From: Octopus vulgaris
Taxonomy: Eukaryota
Length of the DNA: 64,000 nucleotides
Assembly: GCA_951406725.2 (NCBI GenBank)
Contig: OX597826.1
Coordinates: 26,908,001-26,972,000 of the forward strand
Direction of reading: 5' to 3'
Under the pieces are notes generated by a model that saw only the letters and a program-made list of their open reading frames with translations, ran no database searches and was not told where the DNA came from. The position numbers were made by a program, and so were the translations under genes. Shown here piece after piece: positions 5,965 through 34,759 of the stretch. How positions within the stretch are numbered: the stretch's first letter is position 1; each line of letters begins with the position of its first letter.

Positions 5965-6272
5965 CTTTCCCGAAATGCAATTCGTAAAAGTCTGCCATTT
6001 ACCGGATGTAATATTTGTAAAGTAACCCATGTGCGTCGTTGACGTTGGTCAGTTGGCTGCCCGGCTTTGACGATGTAGGGTCGTTTATTTATGATACGTC
6101 CAGACTTGCTGATGAATACAGAGGTATGAAATCACAGGTGATACAAGTCCATATTTTTTAAATGTCTTACTTTGAAAAATTGCATTCGGTTGGATTAGTA
6201 AAATTTTTGGTAGAAATGACTAATTTTGTCCCTCTTAGCGTGTGGCATGTATGTATAATAATGCCCTCTATA
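5965..6272 (+). mobile_element. Diverged partial copy of the 480-bp hammerhead repeat
   Basis: Colinear with 34386-34712 (gccatttaccggat, ttttttaaatgtctt, tttgtccctcttag, taataatgccctctata); flanked on both sides by (TA)n. Confidence 0.85.
6103..6149 (+). ncRNA. Type I hammerhead ribozyme motif
   Basis: GACUUG-CUGAUGA-AUAC agag GUAU-GAAA-UCAC ag GUGA-UA|CAAGUC: intact core and three helices; predicted cleavage after 6143. Confidence 0.85.
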
Positions 6273-6277
6273 TATAA

Positions 6278-6354
<77 letters not shown>

Positions 6355-19744: not shown

Positions 19745-19951
19745 GTGACCGCGTGTGTACCGTTGGCGATTTTTTTCCTCCGTCTTCCCTTCTCTGGATC
19801 TTTCTTTTTTCTATGTTTCTGACGAAGAGCTCCGCTCGAAACGTAAAATCCTCCTTGTTCCTTTCCTTCCTGAGCGTCAAGTAATACTATATTTGTGCCA
19901 CGTCCTCGCGTTGTTGTGTTTTCTCTTTGTGTTTTCATGTTTGGATTAACT
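19745..19951 (+). mobile_element. Short Penelope-like terminal-repeat remnant with a minimal hammerhead
   Basis: Flanked by (TA)n; contains CTGACGAAGAGCTCCGCTCGAAACGTA; related sequence (gctcgaaacgtaaaa...cttcctgagcgt...taatac) at 36975-37105 on the minus strand. Confidence 0.55.
19815..19849 (+). ncRNA. Minimal type I hammerhead motif (PLE-type)
   Basis: GUUU-CUGACGA-A-GAGC ucc GCUC-GAAA CG UA|AAAU; helix III reduced to palindromic ACGU; weak helix I. Confidence 0.65.
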
Positions 19952-30228: not shown

Positions 30229-30883
30229 ATTTTCACTATAGAATACCCAGGAACATCTCAAACATAAGAGCATTACACTCATCATCTACTGACATATATA
30301 GACCAAGATTTTGTTACCAAAATCCCTAATTTTACGGCAAATAATCATATATTAGTAAACACGTTAAAAAATAGAGAATGATGAAGACAGAAAGGGTTGT
30401 TATAGTTTTCTATTCAGAACAGCTTCCACATCATCTGTTACTTCAAAGAAATCATTTCAAAGAGCAATGTAAGAAGAAAAAAATTTCTTCGAAACATAAC
30501 TCACTGATAATATACAAGACAATATTAAGAAATACACGCGATTTACTTTCACTTTCGCTTTTTCAATCGTTAGATACTGGGCGTGCTAGGGTGACATTAT
30601 CAAGGGTTTAGTCGGATGAATCGGTCACCACCCTCCGTAATTAATTTTTAAGTCTTGTATACTTATTATTTCACTTTCATTTCTTCAACCACTATGTTAC
30701 GGAGACGTAAGCAAGCCAGTACCAGTTTTTCACACAGTGGTGGGGGACAAACATGAACACAAACACACATATATTCAGGCATGCATAAATCACTCTCTCT
30801 CTTTTTCTGTGTGTGTCTGTGTGTGTCAATATATACACATGACTGTATATATTGACTGGATGATCGAGTCAAGCCGATTGGGC

Positions 30884-30941
30884 GGCTCTCACTGAAGAAG
30901 TATACATGAATACGCGAAACTGGACGTCTAGTCTGAGAGTT
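30884..30941 (+). ncRNA. Type I hammerhead ribozyme motif with palindromic helix III
   Basis: GGCUCUCA-CUGAAGA-a GUAU acauga AUAC gc-GAAA-CUGGA cg UCUAG-UC|UGAGAGUU; GUC triplet, predicted cleavage after 30933; base of helix II imperfect. Confidence 0.75.
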
Positions 30942-30997
30942 TCTCCATTTGGTCATGGGGCTTTCCCCCCACCCTTGTCAGCATAAGTTTATACATT

Positions 30998-31220
30998 TTA
31001 TCTCTTTACTGCACACAGGGGGCTAAACATAGAGGGGACAAACAAGGACAGACACACAGATTAAGTCGATTGCATCGACCGCAAGAGACCTATTTAATCG
31101 ACCCCGAAAGGATGAAAGGCAAAGTCGACCTCGGCGGAATTTGAACTCCGAACGTAGCGACAGACGAAATACTGCTATTTCACCTGGCGTGCTAATGTTT
31201 CTGCTAGCTCATCGCCCTAT
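30998..31220 (-). mobile_element. SINE family 2
   Basis: aaacatagaggggacaaacaaggac...atcgaccccgaaaggatgaaaggcaaagtcgacctcggcggaatttgaactc. Confidence 0.8.
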
Positions 31221-31333
31221 GTTTATATATTTGAGCTCTTCCTACGGCACAAGGAATACTGTACTCCTATTTCTAGCTATGTAGGTGTTGTTGGCACACT
31301 TACATTTAGCGACGATTGAATTTTTCTTTTACT

Positions 31334-31416
<83 letters not shown>

Positions 31417-31764
31417 TATATATATATATATACATCTATATATATACATATATACATACATACATACATATGTGCACAAACACACACACATATATATATA
31501 TTAGTAGAAGTTTGAAAAGTAACAGTTGATATGTATAAGGAAAATGAAAATTATTTCAGCATTTTCCACCTTGTCTTATTTTCCTTATATACATACATAC
31601 ATACATACATACATACATACTTACATACATACGTACTTACATACATGCATGTATACATACATACATATATACATACATATATTCATACATACATGCATGC
31701 ATATATACATACATATATGCATACATACATATCTGCATGCATACATACATACATACATACATAC

Positions 31765-33262: not shown

Positions 33263-33313
<51 letters not shown>

Positions 33314-33570
33314 TTTAACAATTAAGGATAACCTCTTAATAAGGGATCTTAACAAGAAATTATCGGGTAGTTAGCGTGAAAACCTCATAAAAGAAAAGAA
33401 TTCGAAAATAATTTTTTTCTCTTGAACAAATTAATTATATCTATATTGTATAGAGGGCATTATTACACATAAATGCCTCACACTAAGAGGGACAAAGTCA
33501 TTACTACCAAAATTATACTAATCATACCCAAATGCAGTTTTTCAAAGCAAGACATTTAAAAAATGAATTT

Positions 33571-33628
33571 AGTTCTGTATCACCGTGATTTCACATTCAA
33601 CTTACGTCTTATGATCATCAGCAGAACT
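33571..33628 (-). ncRNA. Type I hammerhead ribozyme, copy 1
   Basis: Reverse complement reads AGUUCUG-CUGAUGA-helix II-GAAA-UCAC g GUGA-UA|CAGAACU. Confidence 0.8.
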
Positions 33629-34050
33629 GATTCTGAACACATCATAAATAAACTACCAACCTTACGTAGCGAAGACGAACAGACAACTGCTCACTCCGGC
33701 CAAGCACATGGAATGTTTATAAATCATATATCCGGTAAATGGCGGGCTTTTTACGAACTGCATGTCGGGTAATAAAAAGTATTTCGGAATAAGTTTAACA
33801 ATTAAGGATAACCTCTTAATAAGGGATCTTAACAAGAAATTATCGGGTAGTTAGCGTGAAAACCTCATAAAAGAAAAGAATTCGAAAATAATTTTTTTCT
33901 CTTGAACAAATTAATTATATCTATATTGTATAGAGGGCATTATTACACATAAATGCCTCACACTAAGAGGGACAAAGTCATTACTACCAAAATTATACTA
34001 ATCATACCCAAATGCAGTTTTTCAAAGCAAGACATTTAAAAAATGAATTT

Positions 34051-34108
34051 AGTTCTGTATCACCGTGATTTCACATTCAACTTACGTCTTATGATCATCA
34101 GCAGAACT
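34051..34108 (-). ncRNA. Type I hammerhead ribozyme, copy 2
   Basis: Identical to copy 1, 480 nt away on the same strand. Confidence 0.8.
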
Positions 34109-34529
34109 GATTCTGAACACATCATAAATAAACTACCAACCTTACGTAGCGAATGATTAGTATAATTTTGGTAGTAATGACTTTGTCCCTCTTAGTGTGA
34201 GGCATTTATGTGTAATAATGCCCTCTATACAATATAGATATAATTAATTTGTTCAAGAGAAAAAAATTATTTTCGAATTCTTTTCTTTTATGAGGTTTTC
34301 ACGCTAACTACCCGATAATTTCTTGTTAAGATCCCTTATTAAGAGGTTATCCTTAATTGTTAAACTTATTCCGAAATACTTTTTATTACCCGACATGCAG
34401 TTCGTAAAAAGCCCGCCATTTACCGGATATATGATTTATAAACATTCCATGTGCTTGGCCGGAGTGAGCAGTTGTCTGTTCGTCTTCGCTACGTAAGGTT
34501 GGTAGTTTATTTATGATGTGTTCAGAATC

Positions 34530-34587
34530 AGTTCTGCTGATGATCATAAGACGTAAGTTGAATGTGAAATCACGGTGATACAGAACT
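34530..34587 (+). ncRNA. Type I hammerhead ribozyme, copy 3 (inverted arm)
   Basis: agttctg ctgatga tcataagacgtaagttgaatgt gaaa tcacggtga ta cagaact; predicted cleavage after 34580. Confidence 0.8.
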
Positions 34588-34708
34588 AAATTCATTTTTT
34601 AAATGTCTTGCTTTGAAAAACTGCATTTGGGTATGATTAGTATAATTTTGGTAGTAATGACTTTGTCCCTCTTAGTGTGAGGCATTTATGTGTAATAATG
34701 CCCTCTAT

Positions 34709-34759
<51 letters not shown>

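Follow-up and report, generated by a model that had tools for sequence, protein, structure and literature searches.

The question raised by this locus is whether the hammerhead-like stretch near position 30,900 of the window (the whole 64,000-nucleotide stretch of Octopus vulgaris DNA that was analysed) is a real ribozyme motif and, if so, what kind of element carries it and in which state it is preserved. A type I hammerhead motif is indeed present at 30884–30941 (Table 1). It belongs to a dispersed 350-nt repeat, of which this locus is a decayed copy truncated at its 5' end; the repeat is likely a non-autonomous non-LTR retrozyme moved by PLE enzymes.

All hammerhead letters named in the original prediction are found at their positions, and a motif scan of both strands recovers the motif. 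The sequence and the predicted fold together provide the elements of a type I hammerhead, being a CUGANGA core, GAAA, a UH site and three helices, open at helix I, and the MFE structure of 30884–30941 is the three-way hammerhead fold. The residue numbering used here is the established hammerhead numbering. Between A9 and G10.1 stands an additional nucleotide, A30899, and relatives have an extra A or U at the same place; the base pair of helix II, G30900–C30915, is therefore intact, and the imperfection that had been placed at the helix II base lies instead at pairs 2 (U.G) and 3 (A x C). The 8-bp span proposed for helix I (30884–30891 with 30934–30941) can be formed, but only 6 bp belong to the family core, the inner added G.U pair being a change specific to this copy. 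Similarly, the helix III palindrome is present, but the proposed 6 bp with a 2-nt loop is wrong for the monomer, which has 5 bp and an ACGU loop. Helix III of the window copy includes one G.U pair, and relatives have a perfect 14-nt palindrome.

The fold energy of 30884–30941 is no better than chance in a shuffle test (z −0.56, with 44 of 200 shuffles as good), and fold energy was dropped as proof of a ribozyme because shuffles do as well. For the 117-nt stretch of the original prediction z is −2.9, with the upstream hairpin contributing. At the gathering score, Rfam gives no matches across the window, which is a weak test, since the other hammerhead motifs of the window are also missed. That the motif is not a chance occurrence follows from the existence of a family, as seen from the other genomic matches and from the pattern hits when compared with a reversed control.

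Table 1. Features of the hammerhead locus (positions in the window; a dot marks features listed with no strand).
Feature	Position	Strand	Basis or remark
13-bp perfect hairpin at 5' edge	30825–30856	+	
5' piece of 350-nt unit, unit positions about 97–221, 5'-truncated	30872–30998	+	80% to family majority line
Predicted outer stem extending helix I	30873–30882 with 30946–30955		fold prediction
Type I hammerhead ribozyme motif	30884–30941	+	letters, both-strand motif scan, MFE fold; 85 bits with family covariance model (window copy included)
Helix I 5' strand, 6 bp with 30934–30939	30886–30891	+	
Catalytic core CUGAAGA (30892–30898) and extra A (A30899) between A9 and G10.1	30892–30899	+	sequence
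Helix II: G-C, U.G, A x C, U-A, A-U, altered loop	30900–30915	+	5 bp in relatives
GAAA (30916–30919), palindromic helix III (30919–30932), GUC site	30916–30933	+	predicted cut after C17 = 30933
15-bp duplication around inserted repeat	30984–30998 and 31218–31232		13/15 alike
Inserted high-copy short repeat, SINE-like, unclassified	30999–31217	.	flanking 15-bp duplication
3' piece of 350-nt unit, unit positions 207–323	31218–31331	+	85% to majority line
(CA)n(TA)n microsatellite at element's 3' end	31336–31471	.	family's usual 3' context

The window copy spans unit positions about 97–323 and is a partial single unit, split by the high-copy repeat. It may extend weakly upstream to about 30845, a similarity that is equalled by 55 of 2000 shuffles and by 166 of 3000 random stretches. 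At four loci (L039, L045, L052 and L053) one and the same common short repeat stands just upstream of the 350-nt unit. The hairpin that had been noticed upstream of the hammerhead is present, with 13 bp, but it is not a feature of the family, having no counterpart in the aligned relatives. It is one of two such hairpins in the window, 23 distinct ones being found in 944 kb of redundant loci, and its 3' arm resembles the 350-nt unit weakly. This hairpin is likely a local rearrangement outside the family ribozyme.

The genome that was searched comprises 2.8 Gb and is rich in microsatellites. A 176-nt query gives at least 13 other genomic matches at 71–92%, so the sequence is not single-copy, and a 22-nt pattern gives 17 genomic hits against none for its reversed control. 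When the DNA and pattern searches are combined, the family is found at a minimum of 106 genomic places, with the best 40 candidates scored in each DNA search, and all copy numbers are lower bounds. The homologue search and the family majority line, proposed together with the original prediction, thus bear out its claim of a second ribozyme-bearing repeat family, independent in sequence of the 480-bp repeat elsewhere in the window; 190 of 300 shuffles score as high as the unit does against the 480-bp unit. On the majority line the unit repeats every 350 nt; the core lies at unit position 117 and the cut falls at 158. As in non-LTR retrozymes, which have units of 170–400 nt and a GC content under 50%, the unit carries one type I hammerhead, has a GC content of 0.27–0.49 at the motif and is without an ORF or LTR (PBS and PPT being outside this comparison). 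The copies consist of one to two head-to-tail units, and among the 106 or more places no long array, as is typical of the retrozymes published so far, is seen, two units being the most. At two of these places (L290 and L275) there are two whole hammerheads, 331 and 345 nt apart. Subfamilies are visible in a 60-copy tree and in the alignments: helix II is GCGUA/UACGC in the subfamily of the window copy and GCCUA/UAGGC or GUCUA/UAGAC in others, and helix I changes on both strands between subfamilies. All family copies found are old. In one of them (L043/L087, 1634–1696) downstream sequence, folded back perfectly over 27 bp, takes the place of helix III. The 350-nt repeat is a new family of a known kind; at the level of literature listings, neither a cephalopod retrozyme nor a long palindromic helix III turned up as the subject of a paper, and the family may already stand in repeat databases or in the supplementary motif figures of both Cervera papers.

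Other hammerheads occur in the same window and genome. The 480-bp family (window 33300–34716) contributes three hammerheads, all identical, in which the site is GUA and helix III holds an odd palindrome of 11 nt. They stand in an inverted tandem that terminates at (TA)n, and in being tandem, inverted and TA-ended this family resembles the 350-nt one. The 480-bp unit, folded as a circle, has a predicted z of −4.7, and this family looks much younger than the 350-nt family. A diverged relative of it lies near 6100 (window 5966–6321); the motif at 6092–6161 reaches only 13.8 bits with the covariance model of the 350-nt family. Minimal hammerheads with an ACGU-type helix III are found at 19815–19849 of the window, in L125 near 8121 and, as an inverted pair, in L005 (435–857).

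The helices of the family were compared in 38 copies (39 full zones, from which the duplicate L008 was removed). Paired cells amount to 86.8%, against 83.1% after shuffling (none of 500 shuffles as high) and 22–46% in slid controls, and pair 3 of helix II is C-G in 11 and G-C in 9 of the 38 copies; these pair counts, like the loop states given below, come from related copies and reflect a handful of source-element changes, not independent events. Two pair-type measures are no better than shuffles (142/500 and 188/500). Helix III occurs as a 14-nt palindrome, as a 14-nt palindrome changed on both sides (four copies), as 12-nt forms centred on GAUC or GGCC and as an 11-nt form with one unpaired centre. 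The stems in these 11–14 nt palindromes are 4–5 bp long, in disagreement with the minimal hammerhead of PLEs, in which helix III is absent or very short. When the 12-nt centre is left free in a genome search, AT is found 6 times, GC 6, GT 2, TC 1 and GG 1 (n = 16; control 0). The loop positions of the 12-nt form pair only between two copies and never within a hairpin.

As suggested in the original prediction, the motif is predicted to be able to fold as a dimer: two window motifs cofolded give a double hammerhead at −39.7 kcal/mol versus −24.0 kcal/mol. The natural loop ranks 13th of 256 for the predicted dimer gain, to be read with the caveat that any hairpin favours a duplex, non-palindromic loops still gaining 9 kcal/mol. 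The preservation of self-complementarity into the loop at 14, 12 and 11 nt, across the subfamilies, points to dimer pairing in the source elements. Such a dimer need not be obligatory, because the monomer fold is also predicted. It is possible, as a tentative interpretation, that in this retrozyme lineage the long helix III, palindromic through the loop across at least five subfamily forms, reflects selected RNA–RNA dimerisation, and that the insertion map and the fusion at L131 (both described below) reflect PLE reverse transcriptase copying and jumping onto retrozyme circles.

Somewhat doubtful is the alternative in which the family is a retrozyme with a hammerhead working as a monomer, the loop palindrome being kept by symmetry repair at the DNA level (template switching in hairpins) and not by selection for dimers. 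It would be in agreement with the predicted 5-bp hairpin of the 14-nt helix III, with the perfect, locally rearranged hairpins in these loci, one of them within a family copy, and with the fact that a palindrome minus its centre is still a palindrome. The shorter forms speak against it: the 12- and 11-nt helices are predicted to have no stable hairpin alone yet to form strong duplexes, the 12-nt centre is changed on both sides (AT to GC) where hairpin pairing is impossible, and an AC centre is found in none of 19 copies, 17 of the 19 centres being pairable in a duplex.

For the insertion map, 66 places were laid out on the unit taken as a circle, resolving into 93 runs (L008 being excluded as a duplicate of L007); the end statistics refer to this set and leave out 16 places added later. 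The unit boundary is crossed straight into another unit by 36 of the 93 runs, 28 are longer than one unit, and in 51 the hammerhead is whole, so that copying went past the cut site. None of the 66 mapped places has a run with two whole hammerheads; two of the 24 places added last do. The 5' starts are scattered round the circle, with no stop at the cleavage site visible by eye in the list of starts, and the 3' ends are concentrated at two stretches, the TA-rich boundary and positions 300–335. A TA-type microsatellite follows 45 of the 93 3' ends, as compared with 14 of the 93 5' ends and 11% of random 45-mers. Both orientations are found at 14 of the 66 places (15 were listed, one being a self-hairpin artefact). 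Copying through the cut site and round the boundary would need a circular template or an uncut multimer. As a circle, the majority unit is predicted to be strongly folded (z −7.5, none of 100 shuffles as low, 63% paired). In this predicted fold the 3' half of helix III is taken up by pairing with the core, which would therefore be switched off.

The preferred reading, a non-LTR retrozyme moved by PLE enzymes, can be pictured as follows. A head-to-tail transcript would fold two neighbouring hammerheads, likely via the fully palindromic helix III, and the folded hammerheads would cut after GUC. Ligation of the resulting unit-length RNA would close a circle with a high degree of self-pairing, and in its predicted fold the catalytic core is hidden. 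With the reverse transcriptase and GIY-YIG endonuclease of a PLE, priming would follow at TA-rich DNA close to the TA-rich boundary of the unit, and the reverse transcriptase would copy round the circle for a variable distance. The outcome would be insertions of 0.2–2 units with random 5' ends and occasional 5' inversions.

The insertions of the family have the partial tandems, 5' truncation, 5' inversion and microsatellite target of PLE pseudo-LTR insertions, and the accessible text of PMC8557442 gives fixed 3' ends, 5' truncation, partial tandems, 5' inversions and a (TA)n bias as PLE traits. Because 5'-truncated PLEs make the same insertions, according to this text, insertion anatomy cannot separate a retrozyme from a solo pLTR. 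It is nevertheless quite unlikely that the unit is the pseudo-LTR of an autonomous PLE whose ORF copies are unsampled or lost, the genomic copies being 5'-truncated remnants, as in the original view of the locus as a PLE terminal-repeat remnant. The shared insertion traits would fit this explanation, as would the extra nucleotide after A9, the G10.1-C11.1 pair and the palindromic helix III, which are traits of PLE hammerheads in the available part of PMC4209133, and the vertebrate retrozymes that are derived from pLTRs in a preprint (bioRxiv 10.64898/2026.07.22.740005, accessible portion).

The search for a PLE parent argues against it. PLE ORF fragments were found in the fetched flanks (at least 1 kb) at 6 of the 106 or more places, and at none of these six was the unit shown to flank an RT + GIY-YIG ORF, in what is a partial sample: no link to a PLE ORF held at the three places that were followed up, and the neighbours at the other three (L043, L057 and L059) were compared by strand and distance only. 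The best 40 candidates were scored per genome search, and a parent element could be missed. At L022/L131 (L131 7904–5060, minus strand) the unit is directly fused, on the same strand, to a 5'-truncated, decayed PLE at a shared ATG, which would fit the pLTR explanation. The L131 PLE was rejected as parent, its family having its own upstream ORF1 and its own terminal repeat, and the unit is carried by none of 59 other loci of this PLE family; the end of the unit that is missing there was not seen on the far side of the PLE. L131 is a single chimera, made by insertion or possibly by a template jump. The L208 PLE was rejected because a microsatellite lies between its ORF and the unit, with the unit in none of 29 related loci, and the L126 PLE because it has its own terminal repeat. 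Of 30 GIY-YIG loci, two hold the unit (one only in a wider fetch), and in neither is it a flank.

Intact RT + GIY-YIG PLE frames of 781 aa do exist in the genome, with many genomic matches sharing the frame. At L123 430–5672 (G000:C16) an apparently intact two-ORF PLE (359 and 781 aa) stands between 456-bp repeats of 99% identity; it has a hammerhead-like core in which U3/A8 are read, and ORF2 is followed by a tandem-repeat region. This family was rejected as parent because its 456-bp terminal repeat and the 350-nt unit have no similarity. A second young PLE family (L194 = G000:C1; L136–L163) has frames of 454 and 775 aa in a 4.27-kb tandem, and its terminal region, which holds a minimal hammerhead with a 6-nt palindrome, is not like the 350-nt unit. 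Two motifs 2.3 kb apart (L220 and L221) were rejected as PLE termini, being a local duplication with no ORF hit between them.

As regards the state of the window copy, its divergence is 12% outside CpG and 34% at CpG sites, which is average for its subfamily (subfamily A: 12 and 32%). All core letters are kept in 21 of 78 copies, the window copy among them, and it is one of only three of the 78 with 6/6 pairs in helix I, at least 4/5 in helix II and 4/4 in inner helix III. Decay is seen at pairs 2–3 of helix II and in loop II. Contigs of two sequence runs labelled as two other organisms (X2 and X3) span the same insertion, differing by 6 and 8 letters over 245 and 431 nt, and G30900 (G10.1) is T in both of these orthologous contigs over the motif (single contigs, depth 5–6). 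In run X4 no contig covers the motif. The original suspicion that this copy may be impaired is borne out: the CpG decay of helix II and the loss of G10.1 in the two orthologous contigs make it likely that the window copy is dead or weak. It is also likely that it evolves neutrally. Over all 29 subfamily A copies there are 12 core-site changes in 251, against 25 expected, and this apparent conservation is put down to search bias; in the 15 copies that were not found via the motif there are 8 in 126, against 11.3 expected, which is near the matched rate, and no selection on inserted copies is seen after removing the 14 search-biased rows. Two observations on transcripts are not taken as evidence: among the sequence runs matched (contigs only) no holder of the locus is on record as RNA, and run X1, only guessed to be RNA, has one 130-nt contig starting inside the motif. 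The sole ORF recognised as protein-coding in the window, two overlapping frames at 77–1983, we take to be LINE-type reverse transcriptase-like. That the window copy is kept as a working ribozyme processing a host transcript is highly improbable: the kept core letters, the place among the three best-paired copies, the hammerhead as MFE structure and the insertion common to samples labelled as two other organisms would fit, but the copy was chosen because it looks intact, its divergence is average, both orthologous contigs have T at G10.1 and no host gene is seen among the ORFs of the window (unspliced frames).

The single window locus is, in short, an ordinary repeat copy, most likely dead, and the distinctive trait of its family is the long palindromic helix III. 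The mover of animal retrozymes has been proposed and not demonstrated, with PLEs named as a strong candidate, in the accessible part of PMC7229834; the 350-nt family adds a footprint of insertions across the genome, in agreement with PLEs, and a single chimeric junction (L131). Its helix III variants form a ready natural series for comparing monomer and dimer cleavage. If the tentative interpretation given above is true, the palindromic helix III would provide covariation evidence from nature for selected RNA–RNA dimerisation, also in forms that are able to make a monomer helix.

The comparison with known systems refers to the available portions of the papers concerned. Like the PLE pseudo-LTR hammerheads (Cervera and de la Pena 2014, PMC4209133), the octopus motif has the extra nucleotide at A9/10.1, the G10.1-C11.1 pair and the palindromic helix III, and the family shares with them the dimer potential, the many decayed single copies and the tandem and inverted insertions. 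Unlike them, it has a long helix III and a predicted outer stem on helix I, and is therefore not a minimal motif, and no RT + GIY-YIG ORF was shown to be flanked by the sampled octopus units. The difference is clear when considering helix III, which has 4–5 bp in an 11–14 nt palindrome versus usually 1–2 bp and a small palindromic loop in the published metazoan hammerheads (PMC4209133). The preprint bioRxiv 10.64898/2026.07.22.740005 covers mainly vertebrates, the non-LTR retrozymes of which are likewise found as many solo monomers and few dimers, with mobilisation by PLE enzymes proposed; these are linked to pLTRs by homology, whereas no homologous pLTR was found for the octopus family.

The closest likeness is with the metazoan non-LTR retrozymes (Cervera and de la Pena 2020, PMC7229834), in which the repeats of mussels are about 350–390 bp long. 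The octopus family differs from coral retrozymes, with arrays of up to 62 units in that paper, in being mostly 0.2–1.7 units and at most 2 units long, and from metazoan retrozymes more generally in that all copies found are old and its circle is a predicted one. It agrees with them in having one type I hammerhead per low-GC unit of 350 nt, a head-to-tail arrangement and no ORF, together with a strongly self-paired predicted circle and co-existing autonomous PLEs. Judged by the sequence criteria that were compared from PMC7229834, the octopus family has the characteristics of a metazoan non-LTR retrozyme.
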